64,000 nt of DNA from assembly GCA_947499155.1 (NCBI GenBank), contig CANMND010000004.1, positions 76,633 through 140,632 of the forward strand. Direction: 5' to 3'. The notes under the pieces are model-generated. The model ran no database searches. It worked only from the letters and a program-made list of their open reading frames with translations, and was not told the DNA's origin. Positions 2,923-62,980 of this stretch are shown one piece after another. Made by a program: the position numbers and the translations under genes. The DNA comes from an uncultured Sphingomonadales bacterium (GTDB lineage: Bacteria > Pseudomonadota > Alphaproteobacteria > Sphingomonadales > Rhodothalassiaceae). Each line of letters begins with the position of its first letter. The stretch's first letter is position 1.

Positions 2923-5900
2923 TCAAGGCGCATAAATGTGATCGGGCTGCAAGGGATCAAGAAGGCTATCGGGCAAGGCCATCATCCTTGGGCCATCAGT
3001 CCATAAAAGAGCGCAGATTACCGGACGACCCGGATATATCTGACGCAAAAGGGCGCGATAGGCGGCCATCTGTCGCAGATAGGCGTGGCTTACCATATCG
3101 GCATCTTGGGGAGGGGGACGGTTGGTTTTATAGTCGACGACATAAACACCGTCTTTTGTTACCGCCAGCCTGTCCACCTGTCCCCTGATGGCTGTCGTGC
3201 CCACAAGTCCGGTGATGGGGGCTTCAGCAGTGCTCTCAGGGCCAAATAGGACCGAGAAATCAGGATGCTCCAGTATGGCCGCAACTTCCGACCACCAAAT
3301 ATCGATCGTTTCCGGTGCAAGGTCATGGGCAGGACGGGACAGAAACTGCCGAGCCGCCTGCTCACGCCTGTCGCAAGGAATATCGGGCAGCAGTTCCAAC
3401 AGGCGATGGATAAGAATACCGCGCTGATATCGATTATGTGCCCCTGAAATCAGTGGGCTAAGCGCCGGGGGGTCATCCACATCGGGTCTGGACGGTGTCA
3501 GGGGCCGGACAGGGGCAGCTTCTGTGGCAGGAGGCAGGCGCAGCCACTTTGGCAGGTCAATGAGCGATTGCGGCTGGGTGGGAACCACGGCTCTTTCAAC
3601 CGGCCGCGTCTGGGGGCAGGACAGTCGTATAATCGTACGACCGCCCGCATCGGTTATTTCTTCGCGATGGTCCAGACGCTCAAACCCCTGTTGTACAAGA
3701 TCATGCCAGGTGGGCATGGATGATTGTCTTAAGGACTGCCATCCGGCGATATACAATCGGTCTTCGGCCCGGGTCAGCGCCACATAAAGCAGGCGACGAA
3801 ATTCTTCATCCTGCCGCGATGCATGCTCTTCTCGCGCTTTTGCCACCGGTCCCACTTCAAGGTCTTTTTTATTGCCACGCCAGACAAGAAGCGGCAGGTC
3901 TGGCCGCGCGGTAGGGCCGGCAGGCACGAGCTTGAAAAGGGAGTCCTTGTCGCTCGGGGCCTGGCCGCAATCGGGCAGAAAGACTATGGGGGCCTGCAAT
4001 CCCTTGGCCCCGTGAACGGTGAGGATACGGACCTCATTGCGCCCCTGATCCAGATCACGCTTGATCTCGGCCCCACCCCGCTCAATCCATTTCAAAAAGC
4101 CCTGCAAGGACGGTGGATTGTCCCGCTCATAGTCCTGCGCCAGATGCAGCAGTTCATCCAGCGGATCAGTTGCCTCAGGTCCAAGGCGGGCTATCAGGGC
4201 GCGTCGTCCGCCACGTTCAGTCAGAAGGCTGGCAAAAAAACGAAAAGGCGAGACCTGATCGGCCATGCGGCGCACGTCTTCAAGGAACGACAGGGCCTTG
4301 GCCAGTGCGGGGGTATCTAGTGCTTGCTGCGTCAGGCGCGACCACAGACTGGCCTTGCCACGATTATGGGCAAGGGTGAACAGGGTCTCTTCATCAAGCC
4401 CGACCATGGGGCCTTTAAGAACTGTGGCAAGGGCAAGATCATCTTCAGGCAGAAGCGCCACTTGTGCCAGAACGAGCATGTCCATCACGGCAAGCTGGGA
4501 CGTCACCTTCATACGGTCGGATCCCGCCACAGGGACATCAACAAGCTTTAGGGCCTTGATCAGGTGATCAACAAATTCGGTGCGGCGACGGACCAGCACC
4601 ATAATATCGCCAGGCCTGATTGGGCGGCTCTTGGCAGGGAGTTCCTCATGGCGATCCAGCATATCTTTTATATGGCGGGCAATGCGAACAGCAAGGCGGG
4701 CATCCGCACTGTCTGAGGCTTCCTGAACAAGGGGCGGCTCCCAATCCTCGCGCGGCGGTGCATGGGGTGTAGGCTCCAGGGGCCACAGTTCCACAAGCCC
4801 CGCGTCCCCGGTGCGAAAGGCTTCATGGTGAATGCTGCTGCCGTCAATGCTAAGGCCTTTTGCCATATCCGGGTCGGCAAAAACCGCATCGACAAGGCTT
4901 AATACGGCCTCGGTCGAACGGAAGGACAAATCAAGAGGTACGGTTTCAAAGGGATGGCCGACAGCACCCGTCCGTTCGCGGAACCGGTCGCGGGCATGGA
5001 TAAATTCACGGGGATCAGCGCGCTGGAAACCATAGATGGATTGCTTGACATCACCGACAGCAAAGACCGTTCGATGAATGTCACGGGCAGTGTCACCAGC
5101 GAAGAAATCTTCTGTCAGGGCCTCGATCACGCGCCATTGTTCAGGGTTGGTGTCTTGTGCTTCATCCACCAGAATATGACTGATCCCTGCATCCAGCTTG
5201 TAGAGAATCCACGGGGATATGCCGTCCATGTCAAGAAGCCGTTCGGTACCTAGAATGAGATCGCTATAGTCAAGGACGCCCTCTTTCTTTTTTTCAGCGT
5301 CATACGCTTCAAGAATGGCCGCGCCCAGGGTCAGGGCGGCTTCGGCAAAACCTGCAGCCCGGATGAGTTTTGAGGTTTCATCAATAGAGAGGACGCGCTC
5401 GATTTCATCTTCCATGAACGGGACCAGCCCGTCCCATTGGGCCTTTACGTCTTTGGTGGGGTAGCGACTGAGCTTGCGTGGTTCGTTCTTGCCGGTCAGG
5501 AAAATGGCCTTGTAGCTGGGCCACAAAGCCGCACGATCCGAGGCCTCGCTGTTGCAGATGGCTGCAAGGGCAGGGTGCAGGGTGCGCTTTTCACTGGCAG
5601 ATCCTGCGGTTTTTACAGCAGCAAGAAAGTGCCTGAGCTGTGTGAGGGGTAAAGCAGAGTCCCCAAGGGCTGATCGCAGATATGTCTCTTCGGACGGGTA
5701 GTCCGCCACTCCCAATGTACGTCTCACAGCAGCTTTTAGGCCGTCCAGCGAGCCATAGGCCGCACGCGATAACAGGTCGCCCAAAAGCCGCCTTTCCAGC
5801 ATCAGGTTACTGGTTAGCTTGTCAAAATCCTGTTCGTTCACTTCCTGCGCGATGGTCGAAAGCGCCTGATGCAGGGTTTTCCCTGAGACCTTGCGGGCCT

Positions 5901-53068: not shown

Positions 53069-54529
53069 ATGCGCGACAGGTCAGGGACACGGACGACCGC
53101 ACATATCTTAATTTTACAACATGATTCCGCGATATGGAGGGGATGGCTGGGAGTTACCGCGGGCTATTTGCTTCTGGCACTCCTTGCACTTCTGCTTTTG
53201 GCAGTTCAAGGGCAGTCGGCTGCCGCACAGTCTGAGACCCGCTATACCAATCCAAAGGTTTTCACGCTCAAGACAGGCATTGCCACTGGCCGGATGGTTT
53301 ATATCGGCGTAGGCGGCGATATTGACGGCCAGATCAATCCCACACTGGTCGTTCATGAAGACGAAACAGTCCAGATAAACCTGATCAATGGCGAAGGCGC
53401 CGAGCATGATGTGGTGATCGACCAATATGCGGCGCGGTCGTCAATTGTGGTTGGCATGAACGCCTCGTCCACCTTTTCCTTTACTGCAAGCAAGGTGGGA
53501 GAATTCGCTTATTTCTGTTCCATAGCCGGCCACCGTTTGGCGGGGATGGAAGGCCTGATCAAGGTGATCTCCGGCTCGCGGAAAGCTCTTGATTCCGATA
53601 TCGCCGATATTGTGCGTGATCCCGCTGATTTGCCCGGACCTATCGGCCAGCGCCAGCCTCAAGTCGTCCGAATCGATATGGAAACGGTGGAACTGGTTGG
53701 CCAGCTTGATGATGGCACATCCTATGTTTACTGGACTTTTGACAATAAGGTTCCTGGTCCCTTCGTCCGGGTGCGTGTGGGCGACACGGTTGAGGTGCAC
53801 CTGACGAATGCCGCTGACAGTGTGATGATGCATTCCATAGATTTTCATGCCGCAACTGGTCCCGGCGGCGGCGCGGATTATACCCAGATAGCGCCGGGTG
53901 AAGAGGCGGTGCTGACGTTCAAGGCGTTAAAGCCTGGTATTTACGTTTATCATTGCGCCACACCCAGCGTTGCCCACCATATCACCAGCGGTATGTATGG
54001 CCTGATTCTGGTGGAGCCGGAAGGCGGTCTGCCCCAGGTGGACCGTGAATTCTATGTCATGCAGGGCGAGCTTTATACTGTTGAGCCCTTTGGCACCCAG
54101 GGTGAGATGGAAATGGACTATGACAAGCTGATATCCGAGCGTCCGGAATATTTTCTGTTCAATGGCTCTGTCGGGGCCCTGACTCGCTCGCATCCGCTTT
54201 ATGCGCGTGTGGGTGAAACAGTCCGCATCTTTTTTGGTGTGGGCGGCCCCAATTTTACGTCATCCTTTCACGTGATCGGTGAGATATTTGACAATGTCTA
54301 TCCACTGGGCAGCGTCACTTCACCACCATTGACCAATGTGCAAACCGTTACAGTCCCACCGGGCGGCGCGACAATCGTCGACTTCAAAATTGATCGCGGC
54401 GGCCACTATGTACTGGTCGACCACGCTCTGTCACGAGCCGAACGCGGCCTATCCGGCTATCTGATCGTTGACGGCCCCAAAAACGACGAAATAATGCACC
54501 AGGGCCCCGCCAACCAGCCCATGGAGTAA
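53069..54529 (+). CDS. nirK: copper-containing nitrite reductase with extra N-terminal cupredoxin domain
   Basis: Core NirK ligand blocks MMHSIDFHAATGPGG and YVYHCATPSVAHHITSGMYGLILVEP. Preceded by a ~100-aa cupredoxin module with its own type-1 Cu ligand set (AEHDVV ... YFCSIAGHRLAGMEG) and a signal peptide. AAGGGGA Shine-Dalgarno. Confidence 0.9.
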   Translation: MRDRSGTRTTAHILILQHDSAIWRGWLGVTAGYLLLALLALLLLAVQGQSAAAQSETRYTNPKVFTLKTGIATGRMVYIGVGGDIDGQINPTLVVHEDETVQINLINGEGAEHDVVIDQYAARSSIVVGMNASSTFSFTASKVGEFAYFCSIAGHRLAGMEGLIKVISGSRKALDSDIADIVRDPADLPGPIGQRQPQVVRIDMETVELVGQLDDGTSYVYWTFDNKVPGPFVRVRVGDTVEVHLTNAADSVMMHSIDFHAATGPGGGADYTQIAPGEEAVLTFKALKPGIYVYHCATPSVAHHITSGMYGLILVEPEGGLPQVDREFYVMQGELYTVEPFGTQGEMEMDYDKLISERPEYFLFNGSVGALTRSHPLYARVGETVRIFFGVGGPNFTSSFHVIGEIFDNVYPLGSVTSPPLTNVQTVTVPPGGATIVDFKIDRGGHYVLVDHALSRAERGLSGYLIVDGPKNDEIMHQGPANQPME

Positions 54530-54541
54530 GTGAGTGAAAGG

Positions 54542-54571
54542 CAGGCGCGAGGGTGGAGACTCTCGCGCCTG
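54542..54571 (+). terminator. hairpin terminator candidate after nirK
   Basis: CAGGCGCGAG (54542-54551) pairs perfectly with CTCGCGCCTG (54562-54571) across a 10-nt loop. The downstream tract is only weakly T-rich. Confidence 0.5.
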
Positions 54572-54697
54572 GTTGATGTTGGGCTTTGCGGCTGGCTGCT
54601 CTGCGGATTTTTGGGAGAACTCGCCTGTTTATAATGATGATTCCCAATTGCGCTTATTGGGTATTGCCAGTGTTGCTCAGGAGATATAGCCTACTCA

Positions 54698-54848
54698 AGG
54701 GCTTACAGGCAGAATTGTTGTCCGGATTCGAGACATATGTACGAACGTCAGGATAGTACTTGTGCTCCCCTGAAACTTAATGCGTTGTTGCTACATTGTT
54801 TTGCTGCTTCGATGCCCGAATGTTCGCGTAGGAGTGCCTGTAAGCCTT
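54698..54848 (+). ncRNA. candidate retron msr-msd non-coding RNA bracketed by a1/a2 inverted repeats
   Basis: AGGGCTTACAGGCA (54698-54711) is complementary to TGCCTGTAAGCCTT (54835-54848): 12 consecutive Watson-Crick pairs plus G-U and A-U. An unpaired G (54712) follows a1, where a branching G would sit. a2 ends 12 nt before the proposed RT start. Internal msr/msd hairpins were not resolved by eye. Confidence 0.5.
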
Positions 54849-54859
54849 CTTACTTACGA

Positions 54860-56641
54860 GTGAATGTGTCTCATCTGACCAAATTAAAAGACGCGACGTC
54901 CAGAAAAGAACTTGCAGTGATCTTGGGATATGAGCCCAAGGTCTTAACCTCGATTGTCTATAAAATACCGCCAAAAGATAAGTACACGACCTTTGAAATC
55001 TATAAGAAATCTGGCGGAAAGCGGACGATCAAAGCCCCGTCCCCCCGGCTCAAGAAGTTACAGAAGCACCTTTCCCACGTGCTCTATCAATGTCTTGCGG
55101 AGATCGAGAGGGAGCGCGGCGCTAAACCGATCTCTTTCGGATTTCGTAAGGGCCGCTCTATTGCTGAAAATGCCTCACGCCATAAGAGGCGGCGCTGGGT
55201 GCTTAACCTGGATTTAGAAGACTTTTTTCCTTCCTTCAATTTTGGTCGAGTCCGCGGATTCTTTCTCGAAGACAAGGCGTTTGAACTGCATCCACAGGTG
55301 GCAACGACAATCGCACAGATTGCATGCGATGGTACTGCATTGCCGCAGGGAAGCCCTTGCTCACCCGTGATTTCGGAATTCATTGCTCAGATTCTGGATA
55401 TGCGTCTGGTTCGGTTGGCCAAGAAATATGGCGTAACTTACACACGTTATGCCGATGATATTACGTTCTCTACCAGTCAAAAAGACTTCCCGATCGGTTT
55501 GGCAAACGTCGATACGAATGACCCTGCCGTGTGGCATCTCAGCGAAGAACTCGAAAACAAAATCGAAAACTCTGGGTTTACTATTAATAAAGCCAAAACA
55601 CGCATGCATGTTCGTGGTAGCAGGCAGATGGTCACTGGTCTGGTGGTCAACGAAAAGGTCAACATTCGCAGTGATTATTACCGACGCGCACGTGCCATGT
55701 GCGATATGCTCTTTCAGACGGGGCAGTATTATAAGGATGTGATCCAACCCGATGATGAAAAAGATGAACCGCAGCCTGATTTGATCGATAACTTAAGCCC
55801 TCTTCAGGGTATTCTTGGCCACATCTACTCGGTGACTCAAACTCAGGAGCGCAGGGAAATCACCGAGCAGCGGAAAAATCCGCGTGCGATCCGCAAGCTT
55901 TTCCGGAGATTTCTTTTTTATAAATATTGTATGGCTCTTCAGGAGCCATTGATTATCACTGAAGGTAAAACAGATCCGGTCTATTTGCGTGAAGCCGTCA
56001 AGCGCCGCACAAAATTCCATCCCGCACTTGGAACGCTTGGAATGGGTGGCTTCGAGCATGCTGTGAGGTACTTCAATTACGACAGTCTAGCGCACGAAGT
56101 GATGGATTTGGGAGGCGGTACAGGTGATTTGAAATCGATCCCCCTTGACTATCTCCGTAATCTGAAGCCGTCGCAAGGGACACATAAGCCGTTTGCCCAT
56201 ACGCCGATGAAGTATCCGGTCATCATCGTCCTCGACAATGATGAGGGCTTGACTGCCGTTGCGAGCACAGTAAAGAAGAATTTCGGGGTCGAATTCAACA
56301 CTGAGTCGACAGCTGATTTTTATCACGTGACCGAAAACCTGTATATCGTGAAGACTCCAGAGGACGGGTCCAAAAACACATGTATCGAGGACATGTTCCC
56401 GAAAAAAGTGCTGGAGACAAAACTTAACGGGAAGAAATTTAATCCTGCCAGCAAGATTAATTCAACCGAGGAATACAGCAAGGAAGTATTTGCGAAATCT
56501 GTTGTGAAGGCCAGGGCTGACGAAATCGACTTCTCCGGATTTGATCCGTTGCTTGAACGCATCTGTACAGTGATCAAAAATCACGCGGAGACGGTCGAGT
56601 CTTGCACAACGCTTGCTGAAGGCGAAGCCGCTTCTCAATAA
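54860..56641 (+). CDS. retron-type reverse transcriptase fused to a C-terminal TOPRIM domain (Ec67-like architecture)
   Basis: RT blocks: GGKRTIKAPSPRLKKLQKHL, NASRH (NAxxH), LNLDLEDFFPS, LPQGSPCSP, YADDITFS, and the retron hallmark SRQMVTGLVVN. C-terminal third: IITEGKTD (TOPRIM Glu) and VIIVLDNDEG (DxD). By recollection it is collinear with E. coli retron Ec67 RT. Start set to in-frame GTG 54860 because the first 41 listed codons (Cys-rich) overlie the ncRNA candidate. Confidence 0.85.
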   Translation: MNVSHLTKLKDATSRKELAVILGYEPKVLTSIVYKIPPKDKYTTFEIYKKSGGKRTIKAPSPRLKKLQKHLSHVLYQCLAEIERERGAKPISFGFRKGRSIAENASRHKRRRWVLNLDLEDFFPSFNFGRVRGFFLEDKAFELHPQVATTIAQIACDGTALPQGSPCSPVISEFIAQILDMRLVRLAKKYGVTYTRYADDITFSTSQKDFPIGLANVDTNDPAVWHLSEELENKIENSGFTINKAKTRMHVRGSRQMVTGLVVNEKVNIRSDYYRRARAMCDMLFQTGQYYKDVIQPDDEKDEPQPDLIDNLSPLQGILGHIYSVTQTQERREITEQRKNPRAIRKLFRRFLFYKYCMALQEPLIITEGKTDPVYLREAVKRRTKFHPALGTLGMGGFEHAVRYFNYDSLAHEVMDLGGGTGDLKSIPLDYLRNLKPSQGTHKPFAHTPMKYPVIIVLDNDEGLTAVASTVKKNFGVEFNTESTADFYHVTENLYIVKTPEDGSKNTCIEDMFPKKVLETKLNGKKFNPASKINSTEEYSKEVFAKSVVKARADEIDFSGFDPLLERICTVIKNHAETVESCTTLAEGEAASQ

Positions 56642-56716
56642 TTAATACGCTAAAGCAATGTGTTGGAATGCTCTTTTATACAAGACATATGGCGGAGCGG
56701 GAGTCCGCATTTTCGG

Positions 56717-56813
56717 CATCCATATATGTCCACAGAATTCTATATTTTTAATTATTTTCAATGGCTTATTAATTTTTCTGGTTTCTCGACATCCATAATG
56801 ATCCACAGTAATC
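56717..56813 (+). repeat. two ~24-nt direct repeats in the AT-rich leader of the integrase gene (arm-type or operator site candidates)
   Basis: CATCCATATATGTCCACAGAATTC (56717-56740) and CATCCATAATGATCCACAGTAATC (56790-56813) share the blocks CATCCATA, ATG and TCCACAG. The second copy ends 34 nt before the int ATG. Confidence 0.5.
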
Positions 56814-56847
56814 TGGCCCATATTAATGGGTAGATTTATGGGTATAT

Positions 56848-58086
56848 ATGGCGCGACCTATTCACAAACTCTCTGCGAGAAAAGCAGCATCAGAATCGAA
56901 ACCCGGTCTCTATTCAGACGGGGGCGGCCTTTACCTGCAGGTGAGCAAGTCTGGCTCAAAGAGCTGGATTTACCGTTTCATGATGAACCGGAAAGTCCGG
57001 GACATGGGTCTGGGGTCGTTACGGGATTTCTCACTTTCCGAGGTTAGAGATAAGGCCCGGGAATGCAGGCAATTGGTGCATGACGGAATCGACCCTATCG
57101 AACAAAGAAAGTCCGCTCGAAGCGCCCGCATGGCGGAAAACCGGAAGAGTCAATCGTTCGAAGACTGCGCGAACGACTATTTGAAGACCCATTCATCTGC
57201 CTGGAAGAATCCGAAGCATCGCCAGCAGTGGGAAAATACACTTTCCACTTATGTGTATCCGATCATCGGCAAACTGTCGGTGAAGGACATCAATACGCAT
57301 CTCGTCAAAAAGGTTCTCGATCCTATCTGGACGACAAAGACAGAAACCGCAACGCGCGTGCGTGGTCGTATCGAGAGAATTCTGGATTGGGCAACCGTGC
57401 AAGAGTTGCGGCAAGGAGAAAACCCGGCGCGCTGGAAAGGACATCTGGACCATCTACTGCCAGCCCCCACCAAACTGAAACGCGTACAGCATCACAAGGC
57501 ACTGCCTTACCAGGACATGTATGACCTGATGCTAGAACTGACAACTGCCGATGGAACAAGTGCTCTTGGACTGCGCTTTCTTATTCTAACGGCGGCCCGC
57601 AGCGGTGAAGTGCGGCTCGCCACCTGGAATGAGATCGACCTCGAGAAAAAGACCTGGACCATTCCTGCCGAACGGATGAAGGCCGGAAAGGAACACATTG
57701 TCCCGTTGTGTTCTCAGGCAATCGACATTCTCAAGACTATGGAGAAATATCGCGAAAGCGATCTGATATTCTCCGGCACCAAAAAAGACCGGCCCCTTTC
57801 AGACATGGCGTTCACGCAATTACTACGCCGCCTGGACAAAACGGACATCACCGCTCACGGTTTCCGTTCCAGCTTCCGTGACTGGGCAGGTGAAACAACT
57901 GCATTTCCCAGAGAAGTTATTGAAGCGGCCCTCGCGCACCAACTCAAGGATAAGACTGAGGCCGCTTATTTCAGAAGCAACTTGCTGGAAAAACGCCGCA
58001 AGCTAATGGACGCCTGGGATAAGCATTGCCGGACCATTTCCGGCAAAGCCATGAACATTATAAAGTTCGACACTGCAAAACTCTGA
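56848..58086 (+). CDS. tyrosine recombinase, P4/CP4-57-type integrase
   Basis: N-terminal DUF4102-like arm-binding region (LSARKAASESKPGLYSDGGGLYLQVSKSGSKSWIYRF). Catalytic residues in context: TAARSGE (R), HGFRSSFRDW (H-x-x-R), ALAH and AAYFRS (Tyr). Confidence 0.9.
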   Translation: MARPIHKLSARKAASESKPGLYSDGGGLYLQVSKSGSKSWIYRFMMNRKVRDMGLGSLRDFSLSEVRDKARECRQLVHDGIDPIEQRKSARSARMAENRKSQSFEDCANDYLKTHSSAWKNPKHRQQWENTLSTYVYPIIGKLSVKDINTHLVKKVLDPIWTTKTETATRVRGRIERILDWATVQELRQGENPARWKGHLDHLLPAPTKLKRVQHHKALPYQDMYDLMLELTTADGTSALGLRFLILTAARSGEVRLATWNEIDLEKKTWTIPAERMKAGKEHIVPLCSQAIDILKTMEKYRESDLIFSGTKKDRPLSDMAFTQLLRRLDKTDITAHGFRSSFRDWAGETTAFPREVIEAALAHQLKDKTEAAYFRSNLLEKRRKLMDAWDKHCRTISGKAMNIIKFDTAKL

Positions 58087-58106
58087 TCAGTAAGGAGAAA
58101 CAGCCA

Positions 58107-58898
58107 ATGAAATTAAAAAATAATCCACCAAGGTGGGCATTGATAATCGATGCCCTTGAAGTCGCGGCAATCAAGGCACCGCTTTATTGTGCGGCCTTTA
58201 TTACTATCACCATGATGGCTATCATCTACATAGTGCCAGTGAATTATATTCCAACAAATGACCAGATCACTTCATACATGCCTGCGCCATTGCAGTCCGA
58301 TTTCTTCTTAAATACCCCATTACCCCACCTCCTGTTTATAGAAATATTGGGACTGGCGGCAGTTGCATATGCACTCCAAAAAGTAGGCTTAGGATTTCAA
58401 TGGGATAAGGCAATTTCCAAACGTTATGCCCAATGCCGCAAAACTTGGCGGAGGTATGATCGTCGGCTCTCTGATCGCAAACAGCGTTTAAAAGAAATAA
58501 GAGTTCGTCGCTCAGAGTTGTTACACCTTGTGCGGCTTCTTTCTGCAGCCTTGAAGGAAACCAAGCCAGAAAAGATAGAAGAAAAGAAAATCAACAAAGC
58601 CAATGCACATTATCTTTTGCATTCCATGCCACTTTCAGAAGTCGCAGATTTTGCGTCTCAATATCGGAAGCGGTCAGATAAGTGTGCCTGGCACGCAGAT
58701 GTTGTCGAATCTTATCGAAAACTCTGGGAAGAAGACGAAACCTTCAAAAAGGCATCAATTTCCAAAAGGTTAAATCTCGCGGCCGTTCAAGCTGGAATGG
58801 GGGGTGCAAGCCTTACTTCACTCAAGACAATTTTCTATGCATATCCAGGTGAGCACTTCGCAAATCTAATGCGAGAAATCCTTAAATTGACAAAGTGA
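58107..58898 (+). CDS. hypothetical membrane protein (two N-terminal TM segments, basic coiled-coil linker, cytoplasmic C-terminal domain)
   Basis: ATG 58107 is 7 nt after AAGGAG. Hydrophobic stretches LYCAAFITITMMAIIYIV and LLFIEILGLAAVAYAL, then an Arg/Lys-rich helix RRLSDRKQRLKEIRVRRSELL. No motif recognised. Confidence 0.6.
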   Translation: MKLKNNPPRWALIIDALEVAAIKAPLYCAAFITITMMAIIYIVPVNYIPTNDQITSYMPAPLQSDFFLNTPLPHLLFIEILGLAAVAYALQKVGLGFQWDKAISKRYAQCRKTWRRYDRRLSDRKQRLKEIRVRRSELLHLVRLLSAALKETKPEKIEEKKINKANAHYLLHSMPLSEVADFASQYRKRSDKCAWHADVVESYRKLWEEDETFKKASISKRLNLAAVQAGMGGASLTSLKTIFYAYPGEHFANLMREILKLTK

Positions 58899-58975
58899 CC
58901 TGGTCAGTGACCTGATTTCTGGCTTCAAATAGGGTTGCCTGCACTCCGACGTTCAACCAACAACGACGGAGTGCA
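58896..58975 (+). promoter_or_regulatory. repeat cluster in the gap before alpA: TGACC/GGTCA half-site triplet plus a 13-bp-stem hairpin (operator or oriT candidate)
   Basis: TGACC-T-GGTCA-G-TGACC at 58896-58912. TGCACTCCGACGTT (58940-58953) is complementary to AACGACGGAGTGCA (58962-58975) with one A-A mismatch and an 8-nt loop. The hairpin ends 3 nt before the alpA ATG. Confidence 0.45.
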
Positions 58976-58978
58976 ACA

Positions 58979-59179
58979 ATGAAAACAGAACGACTTCTAC
59001 GGATTAAGGATGTTTGCCATCAGACGGGCTTTTGTCGGTCTCACATATACAATCTAATCGGCAAAGGCACATTTCCCCGCCCCGTTGGGCTGGGACGTGC
59101 CCGGCGCTGGCGGCAAAGTGATATAGACCTTTTTATCTCCAACCTCCCGGTTGTCAGCGTCGACGGGGGGCTCAAATGA
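58979..59179 (+). CDS. AlpA-family transcriptional regulator / excisionase-like HTH protein
   Basis: 66 aa. LLRIKDVCHQTGFCRSHIYNLIGKGTFPRPVGLGRARRWRQSDIDLFI matches the AlpA/MerR-like phage regulatory pattern. ATGA overlap with the next ORF. Confidence 0.85.
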   Translation: MKTERLLRIKDVCHQTGFCRSHIYNLIGKGTFPRPVGLGRARRWRQSDIDLFISNLPVVSVDGGLK

Positions 59180-59523
59180 AACAAGATGTGCAACGCCAAA
59201 TCAGCTTTCGCGTGAGCCCGACCGAAGCCGATATCATCAAAAATGCTGCACGGGCATCTGGTCAGAAACAACGCGACTGGCTGCGACTGGCCGTTCTTTC
59301 CGCAGTCGATTCACAAAGTCGCGGCTTCCGCTCAATTGAAGAGAAGATCGAGCTACAACTCGTCCACACGAGTTTTCTTTTTGAGTTCTTGATGCTGCGT
59401 GCAAAAGGGAAGGTGCCTCGTAATCAAAATGAACATCCGGCCTGGTGCCGTCAATTGTACCGCAAAGTGAAGGCCAATCTAACAGAACAGCATTTTCTGA
59501 GCACGAAAGGAGAGGATCTATGA
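59176..59523 (+). CDS. ribbon-helix-helix relaxosome accessory protein (MobC-like)
   Basis: N-terminus RQISFRVSPTEADIIKNAARASGQKQRDWLRLAVL fits a beta-strand/helix/helix RHH. Upstream of a relaxase in the same overlapping operon. Confidence 0.55.
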   Translation: MKQDVQRQISFRVSPTEADIIKNAARASGQKQRDWLRLAVLSAVDSQSRGFRSIEEKIELQLVHTSFLFEFLMLRAKGKVPRNQNEHPAWCRQLYRKVKANLTEQHFLSTKGEDL

Positions 59524-60170
59524 ATAGGTTTCCTCTCCCGTTGCCTCCGGTTAGAGCGAGCCTGACAGGCGCACTTGCAGCAACAAGCGTTTTAGCACTT
59601 GGTCTGGACACGCACGAGATTCATCTATGGTGGCTCGAGATTTTCCGCGACATAGACCGATGGCTTGGCTGGACTGGCTTCACCTCTCACGACGACTGGA
59701 TGTACCTGTACAAAAATTGGGACTCTGCCGCTTTCTTGAAAGTAAACTCGTATCTGTCGCTGGCCGTATTGCTATTCGCTATCACGACAATAGCAAGCTG
59801 GGTCATGCTCTTAGCTCGCTTGCGGCTCATAAAACGACTGCAGGAAGTCCACGGCATGATCGAGGCTATCAGGTTGCACTATACAAACCTGCAGCACCGC
59901 ATTCCAAATCTGGAACAGCAAGCAAACACAGCCTTAGAGACAGTCAACGACATAGTGTCAGAACTTGCTGTTCTTAAAGAATGGATTGAGCGAGCCAGGG
60001 AAGAACCGCCTGCTGGCTCCTCACCAGAGGTAGTATTCGACAACACTGCGGCCAGCTCTTATCCCTCTATACGAGAACGGGAGCATATGTCCCAGCTCGA
60101 AGAGGAGGAGGAAGAAGCAGAGAAAGAAAAAGAAAAAGAGAAAAATTACGACTTCGACCTTGAACTATAA
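59520..60170 (+). CDS. hypothetical TM/coiled-coil protein with acidic tail ending DFDLEL
   Basis: ATG 59520 overlaps the previous TGA (ATGA). Hydrophobic segment YLSLAVLLFAITTIASWVMLLA, heptad-like region LQEVHGMIEAIRLHYTNLQHRIPNLEQQANTALETVNDIVSELAVLKEWI, and tail EEEEEEAEKEKEKEKNYDFDLEL. Confidence 0.6.
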   Translation: MNRFPLPLPPVRASLTGALAATSVLALGLDTHEIHLWWLEIFRDIDRWLGWTGFTSHDDWMYLYKNWDSAAFLKVNSYLSLAVLLFAITTIASWVMLLARLRLIKRLQEVHGMIEAIRLHYTNLQHRIPNLEQQANTALETVNDIVSELAVLKEWIERAREEPPAGSSPEVVFDNTAASSYPSIREREHMSQLEEEEEEAEKEKEKEKNYDFDLEL

Positions 60171-60181
60171 GGGGATGCATC

Positions 60182-62980
60182 ATGTTATCTATCGCGTCTC
60201 TATCGGCTGCCGCAGCCGCCAAAAGTTATTACGATGCTGACAATTATTACACCAAAGCCGACGGCCAATCACCCAGTCATTGGCATGGCACCGGGGCATC
60301 AAATCTTGGCCTGGTGGGCCCGGTAAATGCCCACACGTTTGAGCAAGTTCTCGAAGGAAACCTGCCCAACGGCACCAAGCTCGGGCGCGTGATCAAAGGC
60401 GAACGAGTTCATGCTCCCGGTACGGATCTCACTTTTTCTGCGCCCAAATCAGTGTCTATTCTGGCACTTGTGGATGATCGTAAGGCGTTGATTGAGGCTC
60501 ATCAAAAGGCTGTTTCTGCAGCGCTAGACTGGATCGAAAAAGAAGTCGTCACATCACGCATATTCGATAAGGCGGAAAGACAACAGGTCAAAACGGCGAC
60601 AGGAAATTTGGTTGCGGCGCTGTTTCTCCACGACACCTCCCGTGCTCTTGACCCCCAACTCCACACGCATGCGGTCATTGCAAACGCATCTCAAGGGCCG
60701 GATGGCAAATGGCGATCCATCCAAGAAATGCCGCTCTTCCAGAACAAGATGCTTATAGGCCAAATGTACAGGAACGAGTTGGCAGCCAATCTGGCAGAGC
60801 TGGGTTATGCCGTGGAAAAATCCGGCAAGAACGGCGAATTCGAAATCACGGGAGTGGACAAGAGTATCCGAGAGATGTTCAGCAAGCGATCCATTGAAGT
60901 GCGCGAGGCAGCCAGCCTGTTTGGTACCTCGTCACCAGCTGACCTGGATCGCGCCGCTCTTATGACACGGGCGAGTAAGCAACATGTCGATCGAGAGAAG
61001 TTACTGTCAAACTGGCAACAACAGATGGCAGAGAAAGACCTAAGTCTGAGGTCATTGCCGTCCCCTGGTAAGTCACTAAAGCCTGCTAAAGCCGCAGATG
61101 AGGTGCTCAAACAAGCTATGTCACACATTTCGGAACGCAACGCTGCTTTTCTGCCAAAAGATCTGCTGAAAGAAGCTATGCGCCTGTCCATCGGATCGCA
61201 TCGCTATGGGGAGCTTGAGCAGGCAATGAATGTAATGCTTGAAAGAGGCGATCTGGCGAAAGGCGAGATTGGCAATCAGCACTATCTTACAACACCTGCG
61301 ATGCTGGAGCTGGAACGTTCAACGCTTGAAAAAATGGAAGAAGGCAAAGGTGCCAGCAAGCCCATTGTCCTGCCGCATCATGTGGACAGGTATCTTCAGG
61401 ACAAGACCCTCACAAAGGGCCAACAAGCTGCCTTGCACACCTCCATAGAAACACTTGACCGGACGATCGGCATCCAAGGGTTTGCCGGAGCCGGTAAAAC
61501 AACGCTTCTCAAGGAGGTGAAAGCCCTGTCCGAAATGGCAGGACGCGAAGTCATCGGATATGCACCCTCCGGTCTGGCTGCAGACAACCTTCAATCAGAA
61601 AGCGGGATTCCGTCCACAACTCTTCAAACCTTGCTGACAAAATTCAAGGGACTGACCGCGGGGCGCACCATGTCAGATAATGCCTATAAGGTCGAACGAG
61701 AAAGGTGGAGTAACCGGGTCGTGGTTGTTGATGAGGCATCGTTCGCCTCGTCAAAGCAAATGAATGACCTCTTGCACATCGCCAATGACCTGCAATTTGG
61801 CCGTCTCATCTTGGTGGGAGACTATAAGCAACTCGACGGAGTGAATGCAGGCAAACCTTTCTATCAGTTGCAGTCCGGCGGAATGACGACCGAGCATATG
61901 CCCGAGAATATGCGTCAACAACGAGATCAACATCGTGAAGCCGTGGAAGCCATCAAAGACGGCGATGTGGCAACTGCCATCAAACATCTTAGCGGCGACA
62001 TTCAGGAAACCTCATGGGATAATCTAACAAGGGAAACTGCTCAGGCGTGGCTAGACTTACCCGACAGTGACCGTGACCATGCACTGATTATTGCCCCAAC
62101 GCATTCACATCGCCGAGCCATCACTGATTACGCCAGAGGTCAACTGGTGAAAGAAGGAAGCCTCGGAGAGAAAGCCGTCGAGCATCCTATTTTACGTCCT
62201 GTAAATCTGACGACGGAAGAACGCACCCTGGCCAGCAGCTATCAGGCGGGTCAAATTGTCCAATTCACCAAAAACTATAAGTCTATCGGCATTGAGGCTG
62301 GCGATTACCTGGCAGTGGAGAAAGTGAATGACCGGTCAGGAACAGTGATGCTGGAAAAGGGCGGTGATATTATCGCCTGGCATCCTTCCAGATTGGCCGC
62401 CCGGACGGATGGGGCCACGGCACTTTATGATCAGGACAGGATTGATCTTCGGCAGAATGATCTCATCCGCTTCACCCGAAGCGATAAAGACCGCGACCTT
62501 TTCAATTCACAAACGGCGACAATTCTTTCTGTCAACGAGCGCGATGTCTCGTTCCAGATGAAAGATGGCCGCAAGATCACCTTGCCGCGCAATGATCCTG
62601 CCATGCAACATATCGACTTTGGTTTGGCCGCAACCATTCATGCCGCACAAGGGCAGACCGTCGATCACGTCATTGCTCTAGCCGACTCTCGCAGCGCCTT
62701 TTCCGCAAACCAGAAGATGTTCTATGTAACTATCTCGCGGTCCCGGCATGGCGTCACGTTGTTCACAGATGATGCCGATCGCCTGCAGCGAAACCTTGAA
62801 GCCAATACAGGCGAACGCTTAAGCGCAATGGAAGTCCACAAAGCACAGGAACAGGAAATTGCACCGGTCCCGGATCAAGTGCCATCCCTTGAGCACGAGA
62901 AACAAGAACATAAACACGAGCCCGAATACGAACTGGAAAGAGTTATTGAGAAGACCATAGACTTCGAGCTGGAACTGTGA
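60182..62980 (+). CDS. MobF-family conjugative relaxase with RecD-like helicase domain (TrwC/TraI/TraA type)
   Basis: N-terminal relaxase with a Tyr pair in SYYDADNYYTK and the His triad LHDTSRALDPQLHTHAVIAN. Helicase Walker A GFAGAGKTTLL, Walker B VVVDEASF, and late motif TIHAAQGQTVDHV. AAGGGGA Shine-Dalgarno. Confidence 0.9.
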   Translation: MLSIASLSAAAAAKSYYDADNYYTKADGQSPSHWHGTGASNLGLVGPVNAHTFEQVLEGNLPNGTKLGRVIKGERVHAPGTDLTFSAPKSVSILALVDDRKALIEAHQKAVSAALDWIEKEVVTSRIFDKAERQQVKTATGNLVAALFLHDTSRALDPQLHTHAVIANASQGPDGKWRSIQEMPLFQNKMLIGQMYRNELAANLAELGYAVEKSGKNGEFEITGVDKSIREMFSKRSIEVREAASLFGTSSPADLDRAALMTRASKQHVDREKLLSNWQQQMAEKDLSLRSLPSPGKSLKPAKAADEVLKQAMSHISERNAAFLPKDLLKEAMRLSIGSHRYGELEQAMNVMLERGDLAKGEIGNQHYLTTPAMLELERSTLEKMEEGKGASKPIVLPHHVDRYLQDKTLTKGQQAALHTSIETLDRTIGIQGFAGAGKTTLLKEVKALSEMAGREVIGYAPSGLAADNLQSESGIPSTTLQTLLTKFKGLTAGRTMSDNAYKVERERWSNRVVVVDEASFASSKQMNDLLHIANDLQFGRLILVGDYKQLDGVNAGKPFYQLQSGGMTTEHMPENMRQQRDQHREAVEAIKDGDVATAIKHLSGDIQETSWDNLTRETAQAWLDLPDSDRDHALIIAPTHSHRRAITDYARGQLVKEGSLGEKAVEHPILRPVNLTTEERTLASSYQAGQIVQFTKNYKSIGIEAGDYLAVEKVNDRSGTVMLEKGGDIIAWHPSRLAARTDGATALYDQDRIDLRQNDLIRFTRSDKDRDLFNSQTATILSVNERDVSFQMKDGRKITLPRNDPAMQHIDFGLAATIHAAQGQTVDHVIALADSRSAFSANQKMFYVTISRSRHGVTLFTDDADRLQRNLEANTGERLSAMEVHKAQEQEIAPVPDQVPSLEHEKQEHKHEPEYELERVIEKTIDFELEL

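Follow-up and report, generated by a model that had tools for sequence, protein, structure and literature searches.

The inverted repeat at positions 54698–54848 of the 64-kb stretch of DNA analyzed here (the window) delimits what we hold, with high confidence, to be the msr-msd noncoding RNA (ncRNA) gene of a type I-C (Ec67/Eco2-family) retron. Together with a promoter and the gene for a reverse transcriptase (RT) fused to a Toprim domain, it would make up a cassette of about 2 kb that extends roughly from 54660 to 56641. The locus is a new copy of a known anti-phage retron system, not a new kind of element.

The closing stem and the RT-Toprim gene

The arms of the repeat, AGGGCTTACAGGCA at 54698–54711 and TGCCTGTAAGCCTT at 54835–54848 (both on the plus strand), pair over 14 bp as the initial annotation had claimed: 12 Watson-Crick pairs in an unbroken run, to which a G-U and an A-U pair are added. 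They enclose 123 nt, matching the earlier estimate, and the nucleotide just after the 5′ arm, which had been described as an unpaired G, is indeed a G (54712). When 54690–54860 was folded as RNA, the minimum-free-energy structure (−52.4 kcal/mol, z = −2.58, with 3 of 200 shuffled sequences equally stable) contained exactly the 14-bp stem, and it recovered the imperfect hairpin at 54782–54815 that had also been noted. Both arms are thus marked by sequence and by fold, as well as by the covariation described below. The 5′ arm, a1 in the initial annotation, is called IRa2 in the Ec67 literature, and the 3′ arm, a2, is called IRa1, a difference in naming only (PMC12405507).

By itself the stem does not stand out. 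We scanned the plus strand of the window exhaustively for ungapped stems that have 14 bp or more (G-U pairs allowed) and span 60–260 nt; there are 17, and two of the others tie the stem at 54698–54711/54835–54848 in score. About 0.08 comparable stems would be expected in a pre-specified zone of 300 nt upstream of the RT gene, but for a window of 64 kb such a stem is within chance, and its significance comes from homology and covariation rather than from the repeat alone. A search of 54000–57200 against Rfam with E values up to 10 matched no retron family, and Rfam's retron coverage evidently falls short of the Ec67-type family. The same search gave a match to the Histone3 stem-loop at 55907–55952 on the minus strand (22.7 bits against a gathering threshold of 34, E = 0.004), which lies antisense within the RT coding region and is almost certainly a chance hairpin. 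It also gave a match to int-alpA at 56670–56732 on the minus strand (16.9 bits against a gathering threshold of 35.8, E = 4), between the RT stop codon and the integrase start; this match too is probably due to chance, as it is far under threshold and on the strand opposite to that of the integrase.

The uninterrupted open reading frame at 54737–56641 that overlaps and follows the repeat encodes a reverse transcriptase (Pfam RVT_1, 3.4e-24). Its product reaches 682 bits with the NCBIfam model NF038237 (retron Ec67 family RNA-directed DNA polymerase/endonuclease; retron_Ec67_fus), whose cut-off is set at 450, its best PADLOC model is RT-Toprim_I-C (731 bits), its best match among solved structures is to the Eco2 chains 9i2f/9lm3 of the PDB (E = 1e-114), and it is 40% identical from end to end to the 586-aa Ec67 protein. 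The motifs of retron RTs are present as NASRH (NAxxH), YADD (residues 195–198), and VTG, and F43 aligns with F46 of Eco2. In the Toprim domain TEGKTD (E366, D370) and DND (D457, D459) align with E374, D378, D460, and D462 of Eco2, and E508 aligns with E515; the roles of the conserved RT and Toprim residues have been described for Eco2 (PMC12405507). A metal-B ligand of Eco2, S513, is replaced by Cys at a position that is variable among close homologues, and the equivalent of the Eco2 catalytic lysine "K562" was not placed by residue count in the alignment with the Ec67 protein. The hallmarks of a type I-C Toprim are its C-terminal fusion, EGxxD as motif IV, and DxD as motif V (PMC7736814), and the presence of DxD instead of DxE excludes variant I-C2. 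As judged by these motifs, the retron is of type I-C, variant C1 or C3.

Where the RT gene begins bears directly on how the repeat is to be read. A public gene call (P0001) starts at ATG 54737, predicts 634 aa, and traverses the msd part of the ncRNA gene (54737–54865). A similar situation is seen in E. coli, where RefSeq annotates the Ec67 coding sequence (our locus L069) from 2990, across an ncRNA at 3001–3132, even though the published start of the 586-aa RT is at 3170; over-extension of the start codon across the ncRNA looks like a recurrent feature of the annotation of Ec67-type retrons. Taken at face value, the open frame from 54737, the recorded 634-aa protein, and the RefSeq precedent would make the region protein coding, with the repeat incidental or part of a translational leader. 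We give this reading almost no credence. Homologues begin with MSxL, 43 codons downstream of the ATG, and nearly all are 575–580 aa long (about 577); the region ahead of MSxL shows length differences among loci that do not keep to multiples of three (the elements measure 120–157 nt and their predicted msd parts 60–97 nt across the family); it is conserved as base pairs and not as codons; and the same stretch in E. coli is an experimentally proven msr-msd. The length and MSxL start of the homologues instead point to GTG 54866 as the probable start of a 591-aa RT-Toprim fusion of the retron Ec67 family (54866–56641, plus strand), an assignment in which profiles, structure match, and alignment agree, and the 634-aa P0001 is probably over-extended at its N-terminus. 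The GTG is preceded by a poor Shine-Dalgarno sequence. The initial annotation had the repeat ending 12 nt before the RT gene, a distance that is correct only for an in-frame GTG at 54860; the likelier GTG at 54866 lies 17 nt past the stem.

Covariation among relatives and homology to the Ec67 RNA

A search guided by a profile, with each species represented by one genome, yielded 68 related loci, 60 of them with upstream DNA. When inverted repeats were ranked within the 300 nt that precede the RT gene, the top scorer occupied the same location in 57 of these 60 and had GA after it, the runners-up being far behind. The repeat ends 9–57 nt before the RT start (137 nt in one locus) and encloses 96–133 nt. 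The sequences of its arms diverge widely, as exemplified by GGCTTACAGGCA, GACTTGCAGGTA, GGCTCACATGCA, AGCCTATTGGTA, AACGTGTGGTTA, and GACATATAACTA. A MAFFT alignment of the elements (A2) revealed as invariant an A-G-A at the branch site, G...UC in the msr loop, GAGU at the 3′ arm, and a further G (54826 in the window) that precedes this arm by seven bases.

RNAalifold recovered the terminal stem and the msr hairpin from the relatives. Explicit counts over 19 modelled pairs showed 93% of cells paired, as compared with 22–44% when the partners were slid, and in the alignment from the covariance model R1 described below 95% as compared with 29–49%; 17 of the 19 pairs displayed double changes, and the covariation score was reached by none of 500 shuffles. 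Among the 60 distinct sequences of the R1 alignment, compensatory changes were seen in 11 of the 12 modelled inner pairs of the closing stem, with 99.4% of cells paired and the innermost A-U pair invariant, and double changes in six of the seven pairs of the msr stem. Compensatory pairing of a1 with a2, the feature whose absence from homologous RT loci would have counted against the proposal, is therefore kept.

Because sequences picked by their repeat had been selected for having one, we also built a covariance model (R1), which contained no Ec67 sequence, and searched it against every locus. R1 found exactly one element per locus in all 61 (the 60 relatives and the window), always on the strand of the RT gene and upstream of it, and these included three loci that the inverted-repeat search had missed. 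Two elements have a long spacer, with the ncRNA about 140–180 nt upstream of the RT gene versus the usual 9–57: L025 (2677–2822), from a Poribacteria metagenome-assembled genome (MAG), and L028 (2727–2863), from an unclassified bacterial MAG. Three loci from Oscillospiraceae/Clostridia MAGs (L063, L064, and L065), whose RTs are 35–44% identical over the RT domain only, gave R1 matches of 18–22 bits (E = 0.001–0.01) upstream of the RT gene, a hint that neighbouring retron types have a related ncRNA that has diverged.

The element is also homologous to an RNA of known structure. Fourteen complete E. coli genomes contain a fully (100%) identical copy of the Ec67 ncRNA sequence, which occupies the 5′ end of a coding sequence annotated "retron Ec67 family" and precedes the start published for the 586-aa RT. 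In the published numbering IRa2 comprises rA6–rA14, the branch is rG15, the stem-loop runs from rG20 to rU42, rU51 is flipped out, the last template base is rG52, and the msDNA begins with dT1 and ends in ...CTGCC (PMC12405507); cryo-EM has revealed rG15 linked 2′-5′ to dT1 (PMC12405507). The sequence in the E. coli genomes fits this numbering exactly at rG15, rU51, rG52, dT1, and the ...CTGCC end, and an alignment of the window RNA to it agrees at every landmark. R1 matches the Ec67 ncRNA at 79.7 bits. Conversely, a second model (R2), built from the Ec67 msr-msd and 13 distant relatives (RTs no more than 44% identical to that of the window) with the window and its clade excluded, has a single match in the whole window on either strand, at 54700–54846 on the plus strand (44.7 bits, E = 1.7e-9). 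Thus, the proposal that the stem encloses an msr and an msd template is upheld by an element that is homologous to Ec67 in sequence and structure and sits upstream of an RT-Toprim gene of the Ec67 family.

Predicted anatomy of the RNA and limits of the cassette

The landmarks of Ec67 were carried over to the window through an alignment to the model (A6). G54712, which is invariant in 56 of 56 aligned relatives and aligns with rG15, is the predicted branching guanosine, and by analogy its 2′-OH would prime msDNA synthesis. Covariation and alignment place the msr stem-loop, the counterpart of the Ec67 stem-loop (RSL) at rG20–rU42, at 54717–54738. Its covarying core pairs 54719–54722 with 54732–54735; the closing pair G54725–C54729 is invariant, as are the U and C at the end of the loop; and two inner pairs are non-canonical (mismatch or bulge) in 26–27 of 60 sequences, which constitute the clade of the window. 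A single-stranded linker equivalent to the Ec67 ssRb follows at 54739–54746, as judged by alignment with Ec67. Its last base, C54746, corresponds to rU51, which in Ec67 is flipped out and marks termination; this position is U in 44, C in 12 (including the window), A in three, and G in two of the 61 sequences.

With rG52 and the A that templates dT1 as anchors, the msd template is predicted to span 87 nt, from 54747 to 54833, the A at its start being invariant (61 of 61) and a G occupying its end in 56 of 61. The msDNA would then be 5′-TCCTACGCG...ATCCTGAC-3′, the reverse complement of 54747–54833, and its length of about 87 nt would be the third longest in the family (60–97 nt predicted, with 67 nt for Ec67). 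In the initial annotation the msDNA had been taken to start opposite 54834, one base off: the first base of the Ec67 msDNA, dT, is templated by the A of an invariant GGA-G-U, which by homology would put the start opposite A54833. G54834, on the plus strand within the GAGU box, is an unpaired G that faces the branch G; it is G in all 61 sequences and is uncopied in Ec67. The imperfect palindrome at 54782–54815 falls inside the template, corresponding to nt 19–52 of the predicted msDNA, and is comparable to nt 29–50 of the Eco2 msDNA. Folded as DNA, the predicted msDNA was no more stable than shuffled sequences (z = −0.2), a test that is uninformative given that the genuine Ec67 msDNA scores the same way (z = 0.05). 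This lack of extra stability agrees with the cryo-EM structure of Eco2, in which msDNA strands form no hairpin but pair between subunits in a three-way junction (PMC12916289).

The A-G-A and GAG-U signals (54711–54713 and 54832–54835 in the window; A2/A6) are invariant in 61 elements from Proteobacteria, Latescibacterota, Acidobacteriota, Firmicutes, and Cyanobacteria, unlike the remainder of the closing stem, which varies freely by covariation. These motifs may be a priming signature of the RT clade in question.

Upstream of the RNA a candidate −35 hexamer, TTGCCA (54664–54669, plus strand), is separated by 17 nt from a candidate −10 hexamer, TAGCCT (54687–54692, plus strand). In an alignment (A4) of 11 close relatives, whose farther upstream flanks are otherwise unalignable, the TT of the former and the TA of the latter are invariant and TTGNCN is conserved in position. 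If functional, this putative promoter would give transcripts that begin close to 54699, at the base of the closing stem. It is a weak candidate: a simple σ70 consensus scan called neither TTGCCA-17-TAGCCT nor TATAAT. The TATAAT to which the initial annotation had drawn attention is present at 54630–54635, and the scan found no −35 partner for it, just as had been remarked; it is, moreover, not conserved in relatives, and on both grounds we rejected it as the promoter in favor of TTGCCA-17 nt-TAGCCT.

A promoter missed by the consensus scan, a GTG start codon behind a weak ribosome-binding site, a Cys where Eco2 has S513, and two non-canonical inner pairs in the msr stem are what might be expected of a decayed or silent retron, one with a recognizable ncRNA and RT that had lost msDNA production or defence. 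We consider this, the main alternative that is left, improbable. The 591-aa open reading frame is intact, every acidic catalytic residue tested in the RT and the Toprim is in place, and the RNA has every position that is invariant in the family. In addition, the whole clade of about 27 sequences has both the interruption of the stem and the variability at S513, a pattern of purifying selection rather than of decay. The named members of the subclade to which the window belongs are mostly alphaproteobacteria.

DNA similarity to the relatives is restricted to 54654–56603, which holds the candidate promoter, the ncRNA, and one open reading frame, and the flanking genes differ among loci. The similar region thus has the limits of an autonomous cassette of about 2 kb that landed in different contexts. 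A single protein gene follows the ncRNA, with no separate effector gene in the conserved unit.

On the left of the cassette is a multicopper gene in the region 53069–54571, whose 486-aa product resembles nitrite reductase and has an extra N-terminal cupredoxin-like domain (Cupredoxin_1 plus Cu-oxidase_3/_2). With the terminator of the multicopper gene the flank of higher G+C, apparently chromosomal, comes to an end; over the retron the G+C content declines from about 0.55 to about 0.47. On the right an integrative mobilizable element adjoins the retron at 56848–62980; it includes genes for a tyrosine integrase with an arm-binding domain (56848–58086), an AlpA-family regulator (58979–59179), a NikA-like protein (59176–59523), and a TrwC relaxase-helicase (60182–62980). 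No tRNA was found near the integrase in the window.

Given the 17 stems of similar size in the window and an integrase 2 kb downstream, one could suppose that the repeat is fortuitous, or that it is a terminator or attenuator of the copper-protein gene or a terminal repeat or att site of a mobile element. All of these strike us as exceedingly unlikely. The copper-protein gene has a strong terminator of its own, a 13-bp GC-rich hairpin at 54542–54571. The repeat travels with the RT gene and not with the integrase, a match to which was found in only one of 69 retron loci, the two not co-occurring elsewhere. A search around the cassette and the island for direct repeats of att type brought up nothing but two short two-copy matches, each with a copy inside the RT gene, which we regard as chance. 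Finally, the 61 co-located, covarying homologues and the independent R2 match (E = 1.7e-9) argue for the retron ncRNA instead.

Proposed mechanism and comparison with known retrons

Taking the studies of Eco2 as a template (PMC12916289, PMC12405507), we infer transcription, msDNA production, oligomer formation, triggering, and defence at the window locus as follows. The RNA would be transcribed from about 54699, probably along with the RT gene, and the 14-bp terminal stem would bring G54712 beside the invariant GAGU box. The RT would bind the msr stem-loop and prime DNA synthesis on the 2′-OH of G54712, copying the template from A54833 back to G54747 and thereby yielding branched RNA-DNA whose msDNA part measures about 87 nt. 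RT-Toprim and msDNA would then assemble into an auto-inhibited oligomer in which the Toprim nuclease is caged by the msDNA. Phage nucleases that degrade the msDNA would free the Toprim RNase, which would cut tRNAs and so shut down translation (abortive infection). Defence by a tRNA-cleaving Toprim in response to msDNA degradation is known for Eco2 only (PMC12916289, PMC12405507). The subclade of the window departs from Eco2 in an msd template predicted to be about 20 nt longer, in the two conserved non-canonical positions that interrupt its msr stem-loop, and in a Cys that replaces the metal-B serine. It is conceivable, though we think it rather unlikely, that this subclade has an msDNA cage of different shape or responds to a phage trigger other than that of Eco2; equally tentative is the further possibility that the A-G-A...GAG-U box, in which an uncopied G is opposite the branch G, is a priming determinant of clade-8 retron RTs that had not been formalized before.

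From a biological standpoint the window locus is an ordinary defence cassette. What the analysis supplies is usable coordinates (branch G, template ends, and promoter) for a retron whose protein is already recognized by standard annotation, and a structural alignment of 61 sequences with a covariance model that would permit type I-C ncRNAs to be annotated systematically. Compact type I-C retrons, with one protein and one RNA, are of interest for producing single-stranded DNA in cells, and a natural variant with a longer template could serve as an alternative scaffold.

Among known systems, Retron-Eco1 (Ec86; type II-A), the textbook retron, has the general plan that is found or predicted in the window retron (an a1/a2 stem, and by prediction a branching G and msDNA primed from its 2′-OH) and a homologous RT core (E = 9e-28), but unlike the window retron it has a separate effector, a different ncRNA architecture, and no Toprim fusion. 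Type XII (RT-TIR) and type XI (RT-protease) retrons belong to RT clade 8 (Mestre et al. 2020; PMC7736814), as does the window retron, whose RT domain scores 320–347 bits against their PADLOC models. Their effector is a TIR or a protease, whereas that of the window is a Toprim; the NCBIfam TIR model gives 291 bits against a cut-off of 600.

The best counterpart is Retron-Eco2 (Ec67; type I-C1), which is carried by a retronphage of E. coli and for which structures are available (9I2F/9I2G/9S1F and 9LM3). In both systems the ncRNA lies directly upstream of a single RT-Toprim gene. The two RNAs have in common a terminal stem of 13–14 bp, an A-G-A branch site, a single msr stem-loop with G...UC at the loop end, an AAY-G context for termination, and a GAGU box before the 3′ arm, and the two RTs, 40% identical over their full length, share YADD, NAxxH, VTG, F46, EGxxD, and DxD. 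The systems differ in the length of the msDNA, a predicted 87 nt in the window versus 67 nt for Eco2; in the msr stem, which is interrupted in the clade of the window, unlike in Eco2; in the equivalent of rU51, which is C in the window; and in S513 of Eco2, for which the window protein has Cys. The nearest relatives of the window retron are found in Sphingomonadales and Acetobacteraceae, not in Enterobacteria, and its cassette sits beside an island with a P4-type integrase and a TrwC relaxase, whereas Eco2 resides inside a P2-like prophage.
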